Shown here piece by piece: positions 1,512 to 12,010 of a stretch of 12,010 nucleotides of DNA. The stretch is taken from IMG/VR virus record IMGVR_UViG_3300045988_152045; one strand, 5' to 3'. The position numbers and the translations under genes were made by a program. The stretch's first letter is position 1. Each line of letters starts with the position of its first letter. The notes under the pieces are model-generated. The model saw only the letters and a program-made list of their open reading frames with translations. It was not told the DNA's origin and ran no database searches. The stretch is from a virus.

Positions 1512-3659
1512 GTGGTGAGGTTTTTGTTAAATTATCAAGAAGTAGATTTTGAAAATATCGAATTTGAAACGGTTGCTAAATTTGATAAGCAAACAAAAAC
1601 CGTAAAACACTATATAAATATTGAATGTGGTTTTGATATTGAAACAACTTCAATGTTGATTGATGAAACACAAAAATTTGCGTTCATGTATGAGTGGACT
1701 TTTGGCATTAAAAACAAAGACTATATTTGTTATGGCAGAACGTGGGAACAATTCAAAGAGCTATGCAGTTATTTACAAGAAATTTATGAACTTTCACCCG
1801 ATAACAATATTTTAGTTGTTTACATACATAATTTTAGTTATGAGTTTCAGTTTATGCGTAAATACTTTGAATGGGAAAATGTTTTTGCAGTTGATGAACG
1901 TAAACCAATTAAGGCACTTTGTTCAATGGGTATTGAATTTAGAGATAGTTATATTTTATCGGGTTATTCTTTATCAAAACTTGCTGAAAATTTAGTTTCA
2001 CATAAAATTAAAAAATTGTATGGTGATTTAGATTATTCACTTATACGAACACATGAAACAGAATTAACAGAAAAAGAACTTGAATATTGTAACAATGATG
2101 TTGAAATAATACTTGATTATATCAATGAACAAATTGAACAATACGGAGATATAACAAAAATACCTATGACAAATACGGGTAGAGTTAGAAAGTTTGTAAA
2201 AGAAAAATGTTACTTTACAGACAAAAACCACAAGAAAAGTTCAAAAGGAAAATTTCAACGCTATAATGAGTTAATGAAAGAACTAACTTTAACAAGTGAT
2301 GAATATATTATGTTAAAGCGTTGTTTTATGGGTGGTTTCACACACGCAAGTATGTTATATAGTGAGCAACTTTTACACAACGTTGCAAGTATTGATTTTA
2401 CATCAAGTTATCCAGCGGTTATGTTGTCAGAAAAATTCCCTATGTCAAAGCCTATTCCAGTTGATTTAAAACGGGAAAATTTTTGGGAACTTTTAAAGAG
2501 TGATGATTATAGTATGATGTTTGACGTCAAATTTTACGGGTTGCATAGTAAATTAACGTTTGAAACATATTTAAGTGAAAGTAAATGTCAAATAAAAGAA
2601 AATGCAACAATAAACAATGGTCGTGTTTTTAGTGCTGATGTGGTTCAAACAACTATGACAAGTATTGATTTTAAAATAATGCAACAATGTTATAGTTGGG
2701 AACGGGTTGAGGTTGCTAATGTTTATAAGTTCTATATGCAGTATTTACCTAAAGCGATTTTAATGTCAATTCTTGAATTATACGGAAACAAAACAACGTT
2801 AAAAGGTGTAGAGGGTAAAGAGGTAGAATATTTGTTGTCAAAGGGTATGTTAAATAGTGTTTATGGAATGTGTGTTACTGATATTGTAAGAAATACAATA
2901 ACATACAATAACGGGTGGCAACTTGAAAAATTCACACAAGAAAGTATGCAAGAACAAATTGAAAAATACAATGACAGTAAAAACAGATTTTTATATTATG
3001 CGTGGGGTGTTTGGGTTACTGCATACGCACGTAAAAACTTATGGGTAGGTATTTTTAATATTGGTACTGATTATGTATATAGTGATACTGATAGTATAAA
3101 GTTGTTAAATTATGATAAACACAAACCGTTTATTGAGTGGTATAATAAGGATATTGAACGCAAGTTAAAATTGATGTGTGATTTTAGAAAAATTGATTTT
3201 AATTTGATGAAACCAAAAACAATAAAAGGTGTTGAAAAATTGATAGGTGTATGGGACTATGAGGGAATGTATGAAAATTTTAAAACTTTAGGTGCTAAAC
3301 GTTATCTTGTTTCAGAGGGTGGAAAACTACACTTGACAGTTGCAGGACTTTCAAAACAAAACGGAGTTGATTATATGTTAAAAATATGTAATAATAATAA
3401 CATTGATAAAGTTTTTGAAATTTTTAATGATGATTTATATATTCCCGAAATCGAAACGGGGAAAAATACTCATACTTATATTGATGAACCTATGACCGCA
3501 ATAGTTACAGATTATCAAGGTAATACAACAGAAATAACAAGTTTGTCAAGCGTGCATTTATCACCATGCGAATTTACTTTATCAATTAGTAAACAATATT
3601 CAAAGTTTTTACAAGATTTAAAGAACGGTTACTTGTTTACGGGTATTTCAGCAGAATAA
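1512..3659 (+). CDS. Family B DNA polymerase, protein-primed type (715 aa)
   Basis: Motifs read from the translation: Exo I FDIETT (D42/E44), Exo II YCNNDVEII, motif A IDFTSSYPAVM, motif B KGMLNSVYG, motif C YSDTDSIK, and a KxY-type GAKRYL. No in-frame ATG precedes Exo I, so the start must be non-AUG: GTG 1512, GTG 1515 or TTG 1524, next to the SD GGTGAGG at 1514-1520. The exact start is uncertain. Confidence 0.93.
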   Translation: MVRFLLNYQEVDFENIEFETVAKFDKQTKTVKHYINIECGFDIETTSMLIDETQKFAFMYEWTFGIKNKDYICYGRTWEQFKELCSYLQEIYELSPDNNILVVYIHNFSYEFQFMRKYFEWENVFAVDERKPIKALCSMGIEFRDSYILSGYSLSKLAENLVSHKIKKLYGDLDYSLIRTHETELTEKELEYCNNDVEIILDYINEQIEQYGDITKIPMTNTGRVRKFVKEKCYFTDKNHKKSSKGKFQRYNELMKELTLTSDEYIMLKRCFMGGFTHASMLYSEQLLHNVASIDFTSSYPAVMLSEKFPMSKPIPVDLKRENFWELLKSDDYSMMFDVKFYGLHSKLTFETYLSESKCQIKENATINNGRVFSADVVQTTMTSIDFKIMQQCYSWERVEVANVYKFYMQYLPKAILMSILELYGNKTTLKGVEGKEVEYLLSKGMLNSVYGMCVTDIVRNTITYNNGWQLEKFTQESMQEQIEKYNDSKNRFLYYAWGVWVTAYARKNLWVGIFNIGTDYVYSDTDSIKLLNYDKHKPFIEWYNKDIERKLKLMCDFRKIDFNLMKPKTIKGVEKLIGVWDYEGMYENFKTLGAKRYLVSEGGKLHLTVAGLSKQNGVDYMLKICNNNNIDKVFEIFNDDLYIPEIETGKNTHTYIDEPMTAIVTDYQGNTTEITSLSSVHLSPCEFTLSISKQYSKFLQDLKNGYLFTGISAE

Positions 3660-3725: not shown

Positions 3726-4829
3726 ATGGCAAAAGAAAAGACAAAATTTTATTCACTAAATAACATACTTTCAAAAGATTGTGTTTACAATGTTATTTTT
3801 GGTGAACGTTCAAACGGTAAAACATATAGTGTTTTAAAATATGCTATTGAACAATATATAAAAACGGGCGGTCAACTTGCGATTGTAAGACGTTGGAAAG
3901 AGGATATTGTCGGCAGACGTGCAAGTGATATATTTAGTGCATTAAATAACAATGGAGAAATTGAAAAAATAAGCAACGGAAAATATACGGGAATAACCTA
4001 TTTTGCAAGTAAATTTTATTTATGTAATTATGATGAAAACGGGAAACCCGTTTATAATATTGAAACTGATTGTGTTGCTTATGCGTTTGCTTTATCTGAA
4101 ATGGAACATAACAAAAGTATTTCATACCCAAAAATCACAACAATTATGTTTGATGAATTTTTGACAAAACACGTATATTTACAAGATGAATTTATTTTGT
4201 TTATGAACACTATTTCTACAATAGTGCGACAACGTACAAACGTTAAAATTTTCATGTTGGGTAATACCGTCAATAAATATTGTCCGTATTTTGAAGAAAT
4301 GGGATTGAACCATATTAAAGAAATGCAACAGGGTTCTATTGATGTATATACCTATGGTGAAAGCGAATTAAAAGTTGCGGTTGAATATTGTTCAAGTATT
4401 AGCAAGTCAAAAAAGAACAATTTTTATTTTGCTTTTAATAACCCGAAATTACACATGATAACCAATGGTGCGTGGGAGTTGGATATATACCCACATTTAC
4501 CTATAAAATATAAACCCAAAAATAAAATTTTTGAATATTTTATTGTGTTTGGTGGGAACACATACCATTGTGAGATTATCAATGATAACGGGGAACTGTT
4601 TACCTATATACATTTAAAAACAACAGAATTAAAAGACAATTCAAATGATTTAATATATTCACTTGATTTTAATTACAAGTTAAACTATAATAGGAATATA
4701 TTTAAACCAATTTCAGAGTTACAAAAACGCATATTGTGGTTTTTCCAAACAGACAGAGTTTTTTATCAAAGTAATGAGGTTGGAGACAGTATAAACAATT
4801 ATTTAAAAATTTGCAAAGGGGGTATCTAA
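3726..4829 (+). CDS. DNA encapsidation (packaging) ATPase, phi29 gp16-like (367 aa)
   Basis: Walker A GERSNGKT (aa 26-33) lies in the context FYSLNNILSKDCVYNVIFGERSNGKTYS...LAIVRRWKEDI. This parallels the phi29 gp16 N-terminus as I remember it (FY..ML.....NFVIGARGIGKSY...FIYVRRYK). Walker B is TTIMFDEF. The SD AGTGAGGT sits 6 nt upstream of the ATG. Confidence 0.85.
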   Translation: MAKEKTKFYSLNNILSKDCVYNVIFGERSNGKTYSVLKYAIEQYIKTGGQLAIVRRWKEDIVGRRASDIFSALNNNGEIEKISNGKYTGITYFASKFYLCNYDENGKPVYNIETDCVAYAFALSEMEHNKSISYPKITTIMFDEFLTKHVYLQDEFILFMNTISTIVRQRTNVKIFMLGNTVNKYCPYFEEMGLNHIKEMQQGSIDVYTYGESELKVAVEYCSSISKSKKNNFYFAFNNPKLHMITNGAWELDIYPHLPIKYKPKNKIFEYFIVFGGNTYHCEIINDNGELFTYIHLKTTELKDNSNDLIYSLDFNYKLNYNRNIFKPISELQKRILWFFQTDRVFYQSNEVGDSINNYLKICKGGI

Positions 4830-5033: not shown

Positions 5034-6275
5034 ATGGCAAAAGTTGACAAATATTTTTTAAGTGAAAACAACCGTACTTTTGATATTACAGACAAGAAAA
5101 GAAATACACAAAATAATATCAAGTATATGTTAAACCGTTCTAATATTATGTTTGAGTATAAAAATTTACCCGAAACTATACCACAAAAAGAACTTGAATT
5201 ACTGTTACAATGTAACGGGTTTGCAATCTTTACAAAAATTAACGGTGAATTTTACGTTGTTAATGGTGGTTTAGGCGGTGAGGGTGATGTGTATAACAAT
5301 CCTACTATTGCAACGGTTTCTATACCTTGCCTAAATTATAATGCTAATTTAACCATTGATACAGATTGTATTATTATACCTAATGATACATTGTTAATCG
5401 GGTTGTTACCTATGTATGAAAAATACTGTACTTTAATGACAGAAAATGAAATAACAATGTTTCTTGCTGATGTGAATAAAAGAATACAAACTTTGTTATC
5501 GGCAAATGATGATAATACCGTTGCAAGTGCTAAAAAATATTTAGACGATATTTTAAACGGTAAAATCGGGGTAATTGCTGAACAAAGATTGTTTGATAGT
5601 TTAAAGGTAAATAACGCAACTCAAACAAATAGTGTTTCATTGACAGATTTATTTGAGTATGAACAATACTTAAAAGCAAGTATGTATAATGAAATTGGTT
5701 TAAGTGCTAACTACAATATGAAACGTGAACGTTTAACAAGTGCGGAAGTTGAAACAAATACAGATAACTTATATCCGTTGGTTGATGATATGTTAAACAA
5801 CAGAAGAAAAGCACTTGAAAAAATCAATGAAATGTACGGTTTGAATATTGAAGTAGAGTTCAATAGTTCATGGGATTATAGAATTAAAAACGGTGAACCG
5901 ATAGAAACGGGTGAAACTTTTGATGAAACAGACGGTGAAACAGAGGAAACAAAGGAAACAGAGGAAACAAAGGAAACAGAGGAAACAGAGGAAACAGAGG
6001 AAACAGAGGAAACAGAGGAAACAGAGGAAACAGAGGAAACAGAGGAAGAAACAGAGGAAATAGAGGAAGAAACGGAAACAGAGGAAACAGAGGAAACAGA
6101 GGAAACAGAAACAGAGGAAACAGAAACAGAGGAAACAGAGGAAACAGAGGAAACAGAGGAAACAGAGGAAACAGAGGAAGAAACGGAAACAGAGGAAACA
6201 GAGGAAACAGAGGAAACAGAAACAGAGGAAACAGAAACAGAGGAAACCGAAAATGACAAAAAAGAAAATGATTAG
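5034..6275 (+). CDS. Portal / head-tail connector (phi29 gp10-like upper collar) with a poly(Glu-Thr) C-terminal extension (413 aa)
   Basis: MFEYKNLPETIPQKELELLL, GDVYNNPT, NMKRERLTSAEV and EKINEMYGLNIEVEF parallel remembered phi29 gp10 segments (FEWENLPPTINPSFLE, RDVYNQAT, KKERMVTDEV, EKINELYGLNVKVKF). Residues 302-406 are almost purely E/T. Confidence 0.8.
   Translation: MAKVDKYFLSENNRTFDITDKKRNTQNNIKYMLNRSNIMFEYKNLPETIPQKELELLLQCNGFAIFTKINGEFYVVNGGLGGEGDVYNNPTIATVSIPCLNYNANLTIDTDCIIIPNDTLLIGLLPMYEKYCTLMTENEITMFLADVNKRIQTLLSANDDNTVASAKKYLDDILNGKIGVIAEQRLFDSLKVNNATQTNSVSLTDLFEYEQYLKASMYNEIGLSANYNMKRERLTSAEVETNTDNLYPLVDDMLNNRRKALEKINEMYGLNIEVEFNSSWDYRIKNGEPIETGETFDETDGETEETKETEETKETEETEETEETEETEETEETEETEEETEEIEEETETEETEETEETETEETETEETEETEETEETEETEEETETEETEETEETETEETETEETENDKKEND
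5937..6251 (+). repeat. In-frame 9-bp tandem repeat (GAAACAGAG = Glu-Thr-Glu) array with a 111-bp higher-order duplication
   Basis: The 315 nt consist of GAAACAGAG units with minor variants (GAAACAAAG, extra GAA, GAAACAGAAACAGAG). The block GAGGAAGAAACGGAAACAGAGGAAACAGAGGAAACAGAGGAAACAGAAACAGAGGAAACAGAAACAGAGGAAAC occurs twice, starting at 6063 and 6174. Confidence 0.95.
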
Positions 6276-6335
6276 TATTTATATCAAAAATTTCTTTTAC
6301 ATTTTACGGGTAAAATGGTTAATTAAAAACGGGTG

Positions 6336-6360
6336 TCGGCATAATTGTTTTTTATGCCGA
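6336..6360. other. Perfect 9-bp stem hairpin in the 137-nt portal-downstream gap
   Basis: TCGGCATAA (6336-6344) pairs with TTATGCCGA (6352-6360), loop TTGTTTT. There is no adjacent T-run on the + strand, so it is not a canonical terminator. It lies in the longest internal non-coding gap (6276-6412). Confidence 0.5.
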
Positions 6361-6412
6361 TATTCGTATGAATGTTTTACTCAACTAATGTATGAAAAAG
6401 AGGGTGTAAAAA

Positions 6413-6910
6413 ATGCCAGTACAAAAAATAAAAAGTGACTTGAATAATTTGTGTAATACTATTTCAAGAACTATAACAGAATGTGAACGAATGAAAACGT
6501 CTGTAAACGGTTTAGGTAATGTTTCCGAAAATGATTTAACACACATAATTTCAAGTGCTGATAATTGTATCAATTCAATAACAGTTTTTGACCGTATTTT
6601 AACAACCGTACATAATGAGTGTAGCATTGAATTAGATATATTCTTTAGAGATTTTAATACTAAAACTAAAATGTTAATGACGGATTGTAAAGAAATAATT
6701 GAACAATTAAAAACACTGATTGAAACTTGTCGGGGTTGTTATGAATTTTATCAAATTTCAAATGAAACTGAATGGATTGTAATGTGTGGTATTACCCCCG
6801 ATTTATTTAACTGGATTGAACAACCGTTATACAGTTTTAAAAATCAATTACAAATGGTTCAAATGTCAGCATATACAAACAACAACAAACTAATTGTGAA
6901 AGTGAGGTAA
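6413..6910 (+). CDS. Hypothetical protein, 165 aa (scaffolding-protein candidate by position only)
   Basis: ATG 6413 is preceded by AAGAGGGTG. The protein looks helical and is Cys-rich (8 Cys, including CRGC). It sits between the portal and capsid genes. No recognisable motif. Confidence 0.6.
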   Translation: MPVQKIKSDLNNLCNTISRTITECERMKTSVNGLGNVSENDLTHIISSADNCINSITVFDRILTTVHNECSIELDIFFRDFNTKTKMLMTDCKEIIEQLKTLIETCRGCYEFYQISNETEWIVMCGITPDLFNWIEQPLYSFKNQLQMVQMSAYTNNNKLIVKVR

Positions 6911-6913
6911 ATT

Positions 6914-7456
6914 ATGACAGTAAAAGAACAATTAAACGGGTTATTTGTTGAAATAGCAAAAATAAGAAATTTAGCGGTTTTCGATTGTTTTTCTCCGTCA
7001 ATATTAGATAAATATTATTGTGGTATGTATGGGGCAAGAACTTTATCAACTTTAGCAACCGAAAACAGTTTACATGATTTAGCAGAAATTATTGTTGAAT
7101 TTTACGGTACTAAATGGGATAGTATTCTTGCACAATACACCGCAAGTGTTACCGCATTAAAAGAATATAGTGAAAAAATTTGTGAAACAATTACAGATAA
7201 CGGAACTAATAATTTTACACGTGATAATAAAACACAAGTTTCAGCGTACAATGATGAAAATTTTGTTAATGATAATTCAGAAAATGAAACTCAACAGACA
7301 ACAACAGATAACACAAAAACACGTGAACAAACATTAACAAAGGTTAGAAACACAACAGAATATAAAGATTTAATTTTGTACTTGCGTAATGATTATTTAT
7401 GTGATATAATTTTTACAGATATAAATGATATATCAACTTTATCAATTTATGGATAA
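6914..7456 (+). CDS. Hypothetical virion-module protein, 180 aa (possible collar, adaptor or head-decoration component)
   Basis: ATG 6914 is preceded by AGTGAGGTAA, which overlaps the upstream stop. The central region is Asn/Thr/Gln-rich and low in complexity. It lies immediately upstream of the capsid gene. Function is not supported by any motif I can name. Confidence 0.6.
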   Translation: MTVKEQLNGLFVEIAKIRNLAVFDCFSPSILDKYYCGMYGARTLSTLATENSLHDLAEIIVEFYGTKWDSILAQYTASVTALKEYSEKICETITDNGTNNFTRDNKTQVSAYNDENFVNDNSENETQQTTTDNTKTREQTLTKVRNTTEYKDLILYLRNDYLCDIIFTDINDISTLSIYG

Positions 7457-7476: not shown

Positions 7477-8643
7477 ATGACAGTAAAACAGATTTTTACA
7501 TTGATGAACGGTGTAACAAGTGAAATTTTAGGCAAGTCAGAAATTGTAGCAGAGGACTTGTCAAACGTGGTTGATTTAGGTACAGAAATTTTTAACGCAA
7601 CAAGCGTTGATAATTATGTAAAATCTTTAGTAAACCATATCGGAAAAGTTATCTTTGTTGACCGTAAATATTCGGGTAACGTTCCGTCACTTGTTATGGA
7701 TAGTTGGCAGTTTGGTTCAGTCCTTGAAAAAATTACTGCTGATATTCCAAATGCAACAGAAAATGCAAGTTGGGAACTTGAAAACGGTAAAGAATATAGT
7801 CAAGATATTTTCTATAAACCGTCTGTAACAGCAAAATTCTTTAATTCAAAGGTTACTTTTGAAGTACCTATGTCATTTACAGAATTACAAGTAAAAGAGA
7901 GTTTTTCAAGTGCTAATCAGTTGAACGGTTTTGTAACAATGCTTTACAATGCAGTTGACAAGTCAATGACGGTTAAAATGGATAGTTTAATCATGCGTAC
8001 TATCAATAATATGATTGGCGAAACAGTTTACGCTGATTTATATGATAGTGTATCAAAAGATATTGTTCCAACAAATACGGGTGTACGTGCGGTAAACTTG
8101 TTAAAACTTTATAATGATAAATACGGTACAACTTTAACAGTTGATAAAGCAATTACCGATAAAGATTTTATCAGATTTGCAAGCTATACAATGTCGCTTT
8201 ATATGGATAGATTATCCAAAATTTCAACACTCTTTAATGTGGGTGGTAAAGAGCGTTTTACCCCGTCTGATATGTTGGGGGTTGTAATGTTATCAGAGTT
8301 TAAAGCAAGTGCAACAACGTTTTTACAGTCTGATACATTTCATGATAACTATGTTGCTTTACCAAATGCTGAAACAGTTCCATACTGGCAAGGTTCGGGA
8401 ACATCTTATAATTTTGCAGACACTTCAAAAATCAATGTAAAAACAAGTAGCGGTCACGTTGTAGAAATTGGCGGTATTCTTGCTATTATGTATGATAGAG
8501 ATAGCATGGGTGTTTGCAATCTTGACAGACGAGTTACAACCAACTACAACGCAAAAGCAGAGTTTTTTAACAATTATTATAAGTTTGACGCAAGTTATTT
8601 CAATGACTTAAATGAAAACTTTGTTGTATTCTTTGTAGCGTAA
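7477..8643 (+). CDS. Major capsid protein (388 aa), phi29 gp8-like
   Basis: The size and position fit, with a strong SD (AAAGTGAGGTAA) and a strong terminator directly downstream. The N-terminal segment VDNYVKSLVNHIGKVIFVDRKY resembles the remembered phi29 gp8 segment NDFITSLVDRIGLVVIRQ. Confidence 0.7.
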   Translation: MTVKQIFTLMNGVTSEILGKSEIVAEDLSNVVDLGTEIFNATSVDNYVKSLVNHIGKVIFVDRKYSGNVPSLVMDSWQFGSVLEKITADIPNATENASWELENGKEYSQDIFYKPSVTAKFFNSKVTFEVPMSFTELQVKESFSSANQLNGFVTMLYNAVDKSMTVKMDSLIMRTINNMIGETVYADLYDSVSKDIVPTNTGVRAVNLLKLYNDKYGTTLTVDKAITDKDFIRFASYTMSLYMDRLSKISTLFNVGGKERFTPSDMLGVVMLSEFKASATTFLQSDTFHDNYVALPNAETVPYWQGSGTSYNFADTSKINVKTSSGHVVEIGGILAIMYDRDSMGVCNLDRRVTTNYNAKAEFFNNYYKFDASYFNDLNENFVVFFVA

Positions 8644-9183: not shown

Positions 9184-10851
9184 ATGGTATGGTATTATAT
9201 TCATAATGCAAATAAAAACATAACTTCCACAAACCCAAATTTAACAATTTCAACATTTAGTTTCGGAGTTGAAATTGGTGGTGTAAATTGTGGCACGTGT
9301 GATAAACAATACAGAAGTGACGCTAGTTCAATTTCTGCATTTAGAAACATAAAACAACGTTTAGTTTTTGGCAACAAAAATTTTAACAAAGTTTCTGTTT
9401 GGTGTCATGCACGTTCAGGAAGTCCATACGGAACAATTAAAACATGGGTTGATGTTACGGAACAATTCACAATAAAAACATATCCGTCAAATGGAATTAT
9501 TGACTTGCAAGCAACAAGTGATTTCAAATATTCAAGCAGTTATGTTTATTTGTATGTTGCTATTGATGAAGAATTTTCAACAACATATACAATCACAAAT
9601 AACAACACAAATTGTATTTGTAATTCTGTAATTAAAAGTGAATACAAAAAGAACGAAAATATATCACTTGAATTTACTGCAAATGAGGGTTATATATTTA
9701 AAAGTAATAGTATAAGTTTAACAACGGGTGCATTAAATAACGCAAGTACAACATATTCTGATGATAGAAAAACATTAACTTTAACGGGTGCTATTATTGG
9801 TAATTTAACTATAAATGTTATTGCAAATGCTATTTACAATGTATCAATAACGGGAACATTAAAAAATTGTATTTGTAATTATTCAGACGGAGAAGTTATT
9901 ACAGAGGACAAACCCGATATTATTTTAACTGCAAATAACGGTTACGAATTTAACGGAGTTTATAATTATGTACGGGGTACAACTACACATAGTTTTTCAG
10001 TTAGTGATGATAAGAAAACATTATCTACACACATTTTAGACGGTTACAATTATAAATTAAATGATGAATACAAAGCAACAAAAATTGTTGAAAAAATCGG
10101 TAATTTTGCTAACCTATATTACACAAACGAAAGTGAATTAACAGAATTATCAAAAGTACGTTTTGTTAGTGACAGTTCAGCAACAGTTGATTATGGTAGT
10201 TTTATAACTGCCTTATATAAATTACCGTTTCCGATTGATAGTGGAATATTAACAGAGGAAAAAAGTAACATTATTTTAGGTAATTATGATAGTAATGTTA
10301 AAAGTACCCGTTTAATAACCTACAAAACAGAGATTGACGGGGGAACAATTAGTGTACCCGAAAAATATAAAAATGTATATGATTATCTGAATACCGAATG
10401 TATTTTACATTTACCACACTTTAACAAAATGCATATAAATACTGAATATGTAATCGGTCAAACTTTAACGATTAAATATATCATTGATTTATATACGGGT
10501 AACGTTACCGCAAATGTTTATTCAAGTTTTATTGATGATATTATAGAAACACAAACACAACAGATTGCGGAAAATATACCATTTATTCAGAAACAAAACA
10601 ATAGTGTTGTTGGCACAGTTTCCAACATAAATAAAAATGTTATTACTACCGCATTTATTGAAATTGTACGTAATATCCCGTATGACAATGAAAATATTTT
10701 TGGTAAAGAAACCATTGACTATTGTGTTATTGGCACAAAAACGGGTTATATAAAAGTTTCAGACGTTGTTTTAAATTGTACCGCAACAGTTGAAGAAAAA
10801 GAAGAAATTGAACAATTATTAAAAGAGGGGGTTTTTATAAATGGACACTAA
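9184..10851 (+). CDS. Tail / receptor-binding protein (555 aa) with two tandem ~85-aa beta-rich repeats
   Basis: It is the largest structural ORF and lies between the knob-like gene and the lysin. Repeats at about aa 135-216 and 218-297 share NCICN, (F/L)TAN(E/N)GY.F and SDD(R/K)KTL. A 16-nt DNA identity AATTGTATTTGTAATT occurs at 9610-9625 and 9865-9880 (255 bp = 85 aa apart). Confidence 0.55.
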   Translation: MVWYYIHNANKNITSTNPNLTISTFSFGVEIGGVNCGTCDKQYRSDASSISAFRNIKQRLVFGNKNFNKVSVWCHARSGSPYGTIKTWVDVTEQFTIKTYPSNGIIDLQATSDFKYSSSYVYLYVAIDEEFSTTYTITNNNTNCICNSVIKSEYKKNENISLEFTANEGYIFKSNSISLTTGALNNASTTYSDDRKTLTLTGAIIGNLTINVIANAIYNVSITGTLKNCICNYSDGEVITEDKPDIILTANNGYEFNGVYNYVRGTTTHSFSVSDDKKTLSTHILDGYNYKLNDEYKATKIVEKIGNFANLYYTNESELTELSKVRFVSDSSATVDYGSFITALYKLPFPIDSGILTEEKSNIILGNYDSNVKSTRLITYKTEIDGGTISVPEKYKNVYDYLNTECILHLPHFNKMHINTEYVIGQTLTIKYIIDLYTGNVTANVYSSFIDDIIETQTQQIAENIPFIQKQNNSVVGTVSNINKNVITTAFIEIVRNIPYDNENIFGKETIDYCVIGTKTGYIKVSDVVLNCTATVEEKEEIEQLLKEGVFINGH

Positions 10852-11464
10852 TGAATTTATTGATTTAATCGGTGATACAATTAAACGTGTTGCACTTGAA
10901 CGGGGTTACAAATACCCGTCAAGTGTGATAGCACAAGCAGTTATTGAAAGCGGTAACGGGAATAGTTTACTTGCTAAAAAGTATCATAATTATTTTGGTT
11001 TAAAGTGTGGTAGCGGTTGGAATGGTAAATCTGTTAATATGCAGACAAAAGAAGAATATACAACGGGAACACTAACAACAATACGTGATAATTTTCGTGT
11101 ATATGATGATATGGAAAGCGGTGTAAATGGTTACTTTGATTTTATTCAGTACCCACGTTATACCAATTTGAAAAATGCAACAAATTCAAGAAACTATTTA
11201 GAGTTATTAAAACAAGACGGTTATGCGACATCAAGTAAATATGTTGATAATGTGTATAACATTGTTGAAAAGTATAATTTAGAAAAGAGGTTCGATAATA
11301 TGACAAGTCAGACAATAATAGAAAAACATTTAACGGGTGATGAAATTATAACAATACTTGCTAAAGAGGTTATAAACGGTAAATACAGGAGCGGTGCAGA
11401 ACGTAAAAAACAGTTGGGTTGTTTATATGATTTAGTACAGAAAAAAGTTAATGAAATGTTATAA
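10841..11464 (+). CDS. Endolysin: GH73 N-acetylglucosaminidase domain plus one C-terminal CW_7 (Cpl-7-type) cell-wall-binding repeat (207 aa)
   Basis: VIAQAVIESGNGNSLLAKKYHNYFGLK and GYATSSKY are typical of the glucosaminidase (GH73) family. The C-terminal ILAKEVINGKYRSGAERKKQLGCLYDLVQKKVNEML matches the CW_7 pattern (G.yG.G..R...LG..Y..VQ..VN). It overlaps the upstream gene by 11 nt. Confidence 0.88.
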   Translation: MDTNEFIDLIGDTIKRVALERGYKYPSSVIAQAVIESGNGNSLLAKKYHNYFGLKCGSGWNGKSVNMQTKEEYTTGTLTTIRDNFRVYDDMESGVNGYFDFIQYPRYTNLKNATNSRNYLELLKQDGYATSSKYVDNVYNIVEKYNLEKRFDNMTSQTIIEKHLTGDEIITILAKEVINGKYRSGAERKKQLGCLYDLVQKKVNEML

Positions 11465-11925: not shown

Positions 11926-12010
11926 ACATTGGTAACGTTTCCAAAACATCAAAAAATTTGGCACAAAATAATGCACAAAAATTGACACAAAATCAACACA
12001 AAATAATGCA
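11926..12010. repeat. Right inverted terminal repeat (ITR-R), 85 bp
   Basis: Perfect reverse complement of 1-85. Confidence 0.95.

Follow-up and report, generated by a model that had tools for sequence, protein, structure and literature searches.

A recently expanded glutamate-threonine tail on the portal protein of a phi29-like phage and its acidic, length-variable counterparts across the family

Introduction

The portals of phi29-like phages carry a crown that is short and disordered, faces the interior of the capsid and touches the packaged DNA, and in the phi29-type crown the C-terminus is flexible, unresolved in structures and mildly acidic (PMC8703570). The portal C-terminus lies inside the procapsid, and a flexible C-terminal domain has been proposed to trigger gating of the channel on contact with DNA (PMC10191066). 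Here we analyse the portal gene of a viral DNA of 12,010 bp (IMG/VR record IMGVR_UViG_3300045988_152045; this whole stretch is referred to below as the window), the gp10-like product of which ends in a long tail made almost exclusively of Glu and Thr and encoded by a tandem 9-bp repeat.

The portal body of the window is homologous to those of phi29 gp10 (crown at about residues 286-309), GA1 gp10 (283-306) and phiCPV4 gp17 (281-302). The difference lies in the region that follows the conserved anchor, which is 133 amino acids (aa) long in the window compared with 28 aa in phi29, and which in the window is almost pure Glu/Thr, repeat-encoded and length-polymorphic. The closest cultured portals, of the type found in Salmonella phage astrithr and Acinetobacter phage Phanie, have bodies 41-48% identical to that of the window; the genomes of these Astrithrvirus-like phages (about 11-12 kb) have a collinear gene order, and their portals also have acidic tails. 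These tails are, however, more mixed in composition (D, N, Q, G, S, P) and include a GERGQG-like motif and an end-piece, both of which are absent from the window.

In larger phages, C-terminal portal extensions can be ordered. The crown of T7 gp8 is such an extension into the capsid interior. Flexible polyanionic C-terminal segments that compete with or repel DNA are also found in T7 gp2.5, bacterial SSB and HMGB1, where, at a length of 10-30 residues, they control the DNA-binding domain of the same protein or serve to recruit partners; in SSB a variable linker is followed by a conserved tip. The likeness of these segments to the portal tail is one of analogy only. The C-terminal barrel of P22 gp1 projects into the capsid interior as well (PMC4992974). 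Both the P22 barrel and the T7 crown are helical and of fixed length per species, whereas the window tail is predicted to be fully disordered, is polyanionic and hypervariable, and has no sequence similarity to either; it would be functionally analogous to them at most.

At the DNA level, the locus shares with coding minisatellites, or variable-number tandem repeats (VNTRs), a tandem 9-bp unit, a higher-order duplication and copy-number variation among near-identical genomes. Unlike the VNTRs of surface antigens, the window repeat is found in an internal virion protein, for which immune- or receptor-driven diversification is no obvious driver.

Results

A phi29-type portal extended at its C-terminus

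The portal gene clearly belongs to the phi29 connector family. Its product matches Pfam PF05352 over residues 18-277 (77.6 bits for a cut-off of 25.6, E 1.5e-21) and PHROG 2038 'upper collar connector' (E 2.5e-40), and its residues 20-303 align with residues 17-307 of phi29 gp10 (309 aa; PDB) with an E value of 2.8e-18, in agreement with the gp10-type portal proposed in the initial annotation. This alignment is collinear and nearly full-length. The GA1 and phiCPV4 portals match as well, and the best Foldseek match of the portal model, which is of low confidence, is the phi29 connector (E 1e-11). Furthermore, the gene lies in a phi29-like context, with a type B DNA polymerase, a gp16 ATPase, a Phi29_MCP capsid protein and terminal inverted repeats.

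The conserved body of the portal ends at an invariant tryptophan (Table 1), and the invariant columns of the alignment (A2) reach S278, S279, W280, D281, Y282 and R283. The proximal segment of the tail, DYRIKNGEPIETGETFDETDG, is the counterpart of the short phi29 crown and C-terminus and is conserved in three of the close relatives described below (L004, L005 and L007). Because the alignment with phi29 gp10 ends at portal residue 303, the Glu/Thr array starts where phi29 gp10 ends; judged from this alignment, the tail is a C-terminal extension of the capsid-facing crown, beyond the end of phi29 gp10. Homology further indicates that the portal is probably dodecameric, with its C-terminus at the wide, capsid-internal end.

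The tail is almost pure Glu/Thr and predicted to be disordered

Residues 302-406 comprise 67 Glu, 35 Thr, 2 Lys and 1 Ile (64% Glu), a count that agrees with the stretch of about two-thirds Glu first noticed in the sequence. The remaining proteome of the window contains 7.1% Glu and 8.2% Thr, and the binomial probability of finding at least 102 Glu or Thr in 105 residues is about 1e-78. The window tail also has the lowest sequence entropy of 240 family tails, at 0.93 bits, the next being 1.36.

Provided that the portal is twelve-fold, as homology suggests, residues 302-406 would bring 804 Glu to each dodecamer, which matches the earlier figure of about 800 negative charges per portal. For the whole tail (residues 281-413, 133 aa) the net charge is -71 per chain and would be -852 per dodecamer. 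Twelve such tails would amount to about 169 kDa and about 205 nm3, and their 924 acidic residues correspond to 3.8% of the 24,020 phosphates of the DNA.

In an AlphaFold model of the portal built on 20 sequences, the predicted local distance difference test score (pLDDT) of tail residues 281-413 is 29-37 and no secondary structure is formed, which predicts a disordered tail. Neither Pfam nor PHROG gave a match over this region. Furthermore, the signature of a helical portal barrel of the P22 kind is absent: no helix is predicted in the tail and its Glu/Thr composition lacks a heptad pattern.

The array carries the marks of recent amplification

Tandem Repeats Finder detects an array at 5937-6247 with a period of 9, 35.6 copies, the consensus GAAACAGAG and 83% matches. 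A second, 111-bp period is superimposed on these units. Positions 6026-6136 and 6137-6247 match at 96 of 111 positions; within them, 6048-6136 and 6159-6247 differ by a single mismatch (T6061 vs C), which makes the sole Ile of the array instead of a Thr, and 6062-6136 is identical to 6173-6247. This last identity, over 75 bp, is the longest exact repeat inside the array, and in the protein the duplicate is exact over 26 aa, starting at residues 344 and 381. The codon usage of the tail is also distinct, GAG accounting for 37% of its Glu codons vs 16% elsewhere, an excess expected if the unit GAA-ACA-GAG was amplified as DNA.

Collectively, the tandem 9-bp repeat and the duplicated 111-bp block reported in the initial annotation are both found by repeat detection and by self-comparison, and the near-perfect units, the duplication and the GAG excess support its suggestion of recent slippage or unequal recombination. 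The exact copy number given here is that of the assembled sequence and may differ in the source genome. Two further open reading frames (ORFs) run across the repeat, one at 5876-6259 on the minus strand (SVSSVS... product) and one at 5911-6063 in another frame of the plus strand; both are low-complexity by-products and not genes.

Tail length varies in frame among close relatives

By searching public collections for exact copies of the last 33 nt of the gene, and adding the contigs of the two closest proteins, we found five related genomes from separate assemblies that are 78-96% identical to the window. Measured after Trp280, the tail of 133 aa in the window compares with 119 aa in L007 (OLFV01002863.1; 95% identity), where it is also nearly pure Glu/Thr, 98 aa in L008 (78-80% identity), 84 aa in L006 (78-79%), 79 aa in L004 (95-96%) and 74 aa in L005 (93-94%). 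The reading frame is maintained in each of the six alleles, which share a terminal ENDKKEND and stop. Regardless of how long the array is, the six genomes do not differ in the DNA of the tip, GAAACCGAAAATGACAAAAAAGAAAATGATTAG (ETENDKKEND plus stop), and the flanks of the array are identical on the 3' side and conserved on the 5' side. A non-repeat linker, GENVSRETLT(D/E)EP, is kept in L004, L005 and L007 and lost in the window, where the array therefore runs directly from the conserved proximal segment.

The same behaviour is seen in a second lineage, which is heavily sampled: its 92 portal variants, with bodies that are all 281 aa long, free of insertions and deletions and 94-100% identical, carry 15 tail lengths. 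The length polymorphism that had been predicted for a VNTR-like locus is thus observed in related genomes, and the locus is a genuine coding VNTR.

Acidic tails are the rule across the family

In all of the cultured relatives, the conserved Trp is followed by an acidic low-complexity tail of about 90-156 aa; the whole portals measure 425 aa (astrithr, assan and Astrid), 423 aa (S.Kent), 380 aa (Entb_47), 368 aa (Shigella vB_SHGBLB0004), 361 aa (Phanie), 358 aa (Vibrio K58 g2) and 356 aa (DU_PP_III). The tails of the 120 closest metagenomic homologues are all rich in Glu, Thr, Asp and Asn, and a search of a whole representative library returned 2,326 family members.

For tail statistics we used 148 family cluster representatives (39-69% identity), taking as the tail everything after the conserved Trp of the SSW/SVW motif. 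Tail length ranges from 8 to 338 aa with a median of 82 aa, compared with 28 aa for the phi29 equivalent, and a net negative charge is found in 147 of the 148. The acidic fraction is 37% in the tail vs 13% in the body, and the basic fraction of the tail is 7%. Accordingly, the view that such a tail is unusual for any portal has to be revised as far as length and acidity are concerned, since long acidic tails are the rule in the clade and 30 of the 148 representatives have tails of at least 133 aa, whereas the Glu/Thr purity of the window tail, and that alone, is indeed exceptional.

The repeat motifs differ between lineages (ETE, DDTQEVETT, EEPA, ESENES, EPEPEP, VEDEVSE), which points to protein charge, and to neither Thr nor a DNA motif, as the target of selection. 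The family conserves acidity and a lack of structure, but not sequence, length, Thr content or DNA motif. The tail is retained in genomes of 10-13 kb, where it takes up to about 1 kb of coding sequence, or about 10% of the genome (L011). The 607-aa portal of this last genome was considered as a possible fusion with an absorbed downstream gene, which was ruled out, the gene being interrupted by an N gap.

In two family representatives (P0242 and P0188), the portal is called as fused to the gp07-like protein encoded downstream (motif KVSAYNS...), and there is hardly any acidic linker or none. These fusions could be real or could reflect read-through or sequencing errors; if they are real, the topology of the gp07-like protein relative to the capsid needs rethinking. 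In the cultured phages (L001, L002, L003 and L014-L019), an acidic linker is followed by a GERGQG-like motif and a conserved end-piece of about 30 aa that resembles a helix-loop-helix. A profile of this end-piece built from six isolates matches 5 of 271 portals (four with E <= 2e-4 and one marginal), the window portal not being among them.

Genome context of the portal gene

The window has a G+C content of 29.6% and perfect 85-bp inverted terminal repeats at 1-85 and 11926-12010, which hold short 11-12-nt tandem repeats (TTTTGTGTCAAT-like). With perfect inverted repeats at both ends, the window represents a complete linear genome of the protein-primed type, and it is a complete phi29-like genome (Table 1). 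The computed isoelectric point (pI) of the putative terminal protein is 9.4. Compared as a whole with cultured phages by megablast, the window shows just a 4% match (71% identity). No packaging RNA was detected when the window was scanned with Rfam (E <= 1), the sole match being a chance snoRNA, and a scan around the 3' end of the portal gene found no terminator.

The 66-aa protein encoded upstream of the portal has a hydrophobic N-terminal segment followed by a charged helix and looks holin-like, and in the record of phage Astrid a transmembrane segment is annotated in ORF005, its equivalent. The lysin combines a glucosaminidase with a CW_7 cell-wall-binding repeat, which, along with the low G+C content, suggests a Gram-positive host for the window phage, in contrast to the Gram-negative hosts of the closest cultured portal relatives.

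A gp11 counterpart is encoded by all phi29-like genomes (PMC11476376). The protein encoded at 6914-7456 has no PDB or PHROG match, and no significant similarity to phi29 gp11 or gp7 emerged when profiles were compared, the profiles being shallow and their sensitivity low.

The spacer of 137 nt between the portal gene and the next gene (6276-6412) folds into a long hairpin-rich structure (-40.1 kcal/mol, z = -5.8 vs shuffles) that contains a 16-bp stem at about 6330-6368. Only 7 of its 137 positions vary across six genomes, two of which are just 78-79% identical elsewhere. No Rfam match, T-run terminator or covariation was found in the spacer, the lack of covariation being due to sequences that are too alike. 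This spacer could be a structured RNA, perhaps a packaging-RNA candidate, or a regulatory element.

Table 1. Coordinates of the portal gene, its parts and the neighbouring genes in the window
Feature	Position	Strand	Basis or remark
Likely terminal protein, basic, 195 aa	922-1509		
Type B DNA polymerase	1512-3659		Pfam/PHROG matches
gp16-type packaging ATPase	3726-4829		Pfam/PHROG matches
66-aa protein with N-terminal membrane segment	4833-5033		Between ATPase and portal
Portal (upper collar, gp10-like), 413 aa plus stop	5034-6275	+	
Conserved portal body, residues 1-280, ends at invariant W280	5034-5873	+	Alignment
Proximal tail segment DYRIKNGEPIETGETFDETDG, residues 281-301	5874-5936	+	Aligns with last phi29 gp10 residues
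Glu/Thr array, residues 302-406, about 35 units GAAACAGAG (Glu-Thr-Glu)	5937-6251	+	Tandem Repeats Finder, composition
Higher-order duplication, first copy (111-bp period)	6048-6136	+	
Higher-order duplication, second copy	6159-6247	+	
Mixed-charge tip NDKKEND plus stop codon	6252-6275	+	Conserved in relatives
165-aa protein, predicted to be all-helical	6413-6910		Directly downstream of portal
Gene between 165-aa helical protein and capsid protein	6914-7456		
Phi29_MCP capsid protein	7477-8643		Pfam/PHROG matches
Two tail genes	3' of capsid protein gene		
Lysin, glucosaminidase + CW_7	10841-11464		Pfam

Discussion

Taken together, these results identify the window tail as an extreme, recently expanded form of a floppy acidic tail that is present on almost every portal in the group. 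We have high confidence in this identity and in the evolutionary account that goes with it. The fuller proposal, that a genuine, in-frame, recently expanded allele of a clade-wide C-terminal extension acts as a polyanionic brush, stands in our judgement evenly poised, and the brush mechanism, which we infer, is put forward tentatively.

Under this proposal, twelve chains of about 120-130 residues would extend from the crown into the capsid lumen and surround the inner mouth of the DNA channel, bringing about 850 net negative charges. What would matter in such a brush is bulk charge and excluded volume, and neither a specific sequence nor a specific length. It would hold the packaged DNA at a distance from the portal mouth and be a soft equivalent of the ordered structures (crown, barrel or core) of larger phages, and it might in addition relay DNA crowding to the portal gate. 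From simple polymer scaling we estimate a chain extension of about 10-15 nm, comparable with the inner radius expected of a 12-kb capsid. The number of repeats would drift almost freely by replication slippage and unequal recombination, and in the window these processes may account for the unusual purity of the (Glu-Thr-Glu)n array, for the loss of the non-repeat linker and for the duplication of the 111-bp block. A polyanionic brush fits the data because charge is conserved without conservation of sequence or length, and because the tail is retained in genomes of just 10-13 kb.

Several observations weigh against a brush. The charge and volume that the tails would add are only a few percent of those of the DNA, and 24 of the 148 representatives have tails of at most 35 aa, so a long brush is not essential. 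The free variation in length fits near-neutral junk equally well. The structural model is poor overall, with a mean pLDDT of 51, and none of the searchable papers, among them a 2024 review of phi29-like phages with detailed models of the neighbours of these portals, was found to describe such tails. Family-wide, Lys and Arg are enriched in the last 10 residues of the tail (12.9% vs 4.8% in the tail body), and in the Gram-negative branch the tail ends in the conserved helix-loop-helix-like piece (IAELQAIIDxPxSSDxDKQAAxELLxEI). The conserved end-piece and the K/R-rich tips hint at a tether carrying a binding motif and not at a pure brush.

The main rival holds that the tail is tolerated, near-neutral low-complexity sequence, that only the short ancestral crown is functional, that the array gains and loses units by slippage since a disordered chain within the capsid is harmless, and that acidity is kept just because aggregation or sticking to DNA would penalise basic or hydrophobic variants. 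We regard it as somewhat unlikely, and part of it is surely true for the repeat number. It accounts for length differences of up to 59 aa between genomes 93-96% identical, for the 15 length alleles found among near-identical portals, for the wide range of 8-338 aa with its many short tails, and for the purity of the unit in DNA with its hitch-hiking GAG codons. Harder to reconcile with near-neutrality are the net negative charge of 147 of the 148 tails and their median of 82 aa instead of the 28 aa of phi29, as well as the persistence of tails in the smallest known tailed-phage genomes, up to about a tenth of which they occupy, and the conserved end-pieces that lie beyond the variable part. 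The tail may thus prove to be largely tolerated low-complexity sequence.

Another possibility, which we consider improbable, is that the tail is a portal-tethered assembly element that replaces gp7, either as a scaffold or nucleator or as a tether to the capsid protein, the terminal protein or another partner. A gp7 counterpart is not among the proteins shared by Astrithrvirus-like genomes (PMC11476376), and no gp7-like protein was detected in the window by Pfam, PHROG and profile comparisons, the profiles being shallow. The enrichment of K/R at the tip and the basic putative terminal protein (pI 9.4) would suit such a role, as would the motif of about 30 aa that follows a variable linker in the Gram-negative branch. 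The window tail, however, has neither this end-piece nor a predicted helix; a whole shell could not be templated by twelve chains at one vertex, lengths that range over 8-338 aa do not suit a size-determining scaffold, and the capsid protein is itself acidic (computed pI 4.9).

Furthermore, the absence of an obvious scaffold gene, which had been part of the argument for such a role, holds only in part: no gp7-like gene is detected, but an extra gene for an all-helical protein that could be a scaffold adjoins the portal gene downstream (6413-6910). Its product of 165 aa is Cys-rich and is confidently predicted to form an all-helical bundle (pLDDT 85); it has no PDB sequence match and, with shallow profiles, no similarity to gp7, and Foldseek returns generic helical bundles. 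The gene is also found in L004, L005 and L009 of the low-G+C clade and is absent from astrithr-type genomes. It is possible that it encodes a scaffold or an internal protein.

That the repeat or its copy number is a short-read assembly artefact is very unlikely. The exact 413-aa protein of the window is not on record in a large protein collection, and the 311-bp array exceeds typical short reads. The longest exact repeat is nevertheless 75 bp, so that reads or k-mers of at least about 77 bases cross the array unambiguously, and the independent assembly L007 (95% identity) has a similar, nearly pure tail of 119 aa. All six alleles stay in frame with the same tip and stop, cultured relatives sequenced from isolates also have long acidic tails, and the contig is complete, with perfect 85-bp terminal repeats.

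The proposals of an ejected anti-defence DNA mimic or of a Thr-phosphorylated or -glycosylated module draw on composition only (dense negative charge, one-third Thr) and have next to no likelihood: the tail is covalently part of the portal, which, from phi29 biology, would stay with the capsid and leave a mimic undeliverable, and known mimics of the Ocr/ArdA type are folded whereas the tail is predicted to be disordered, while relatives have V, P, S, N, D or Q in place of Thr in their tails, so that a conserved role for modified Thr is unlikely, and Pfam and PHROG revealed neither a kinase nor a glycosyltransferase in the 12-kb genome.

Two other roles were considered and rejected. A DNA-level role of the repeat, as an array of binding sites, does not agree with relatives that keep the acidity by means of unrelated DNA motifs. 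A role as genome-length 'filler' was rejected since twelve tails would occupy about 1.6% of the volume of bare DNA, and it is also contradicted by long-tail portals on contigs of 12.5-12.9 kb.

To return to the acidic brush, a bolder form of it, which we hold to be doubtful, is that the smallest tailed phages have converted the crown into a long, disordered and polyanionic brush with a mechanical role inside the capsid, as a tethered substitute for scaffold or core or as an electrostatic gauge by which capsid filling would close the portal gate, with its length rapidly tuned by slippage.

The tail phenomenon is widespread, undescribed and testable in cultured phages (astrithr, Phanie and DU_PP_III). 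The locus is usable as a length-polymorphic strain marker, and it is a hazard for assembly and annotation in an abundant group (2,326 family matches). If the tails are near-neutral, the locus shows the free expansion of a disordered segment inside the virion of a very compact genome. If they are functional, they would be an undescribed component of the minimal phi29-like virion, in which about 130-400 kDa of disordered polyanionic protein would be anchored at the DNA channel of 10-13 kb capsids. Such a component would be relevant to the organisation, retention and release of DNA where an ordered crown, barrel or core is lacking, and to capsid assembly by phages that have about 15 genes and no recognised scaffold.

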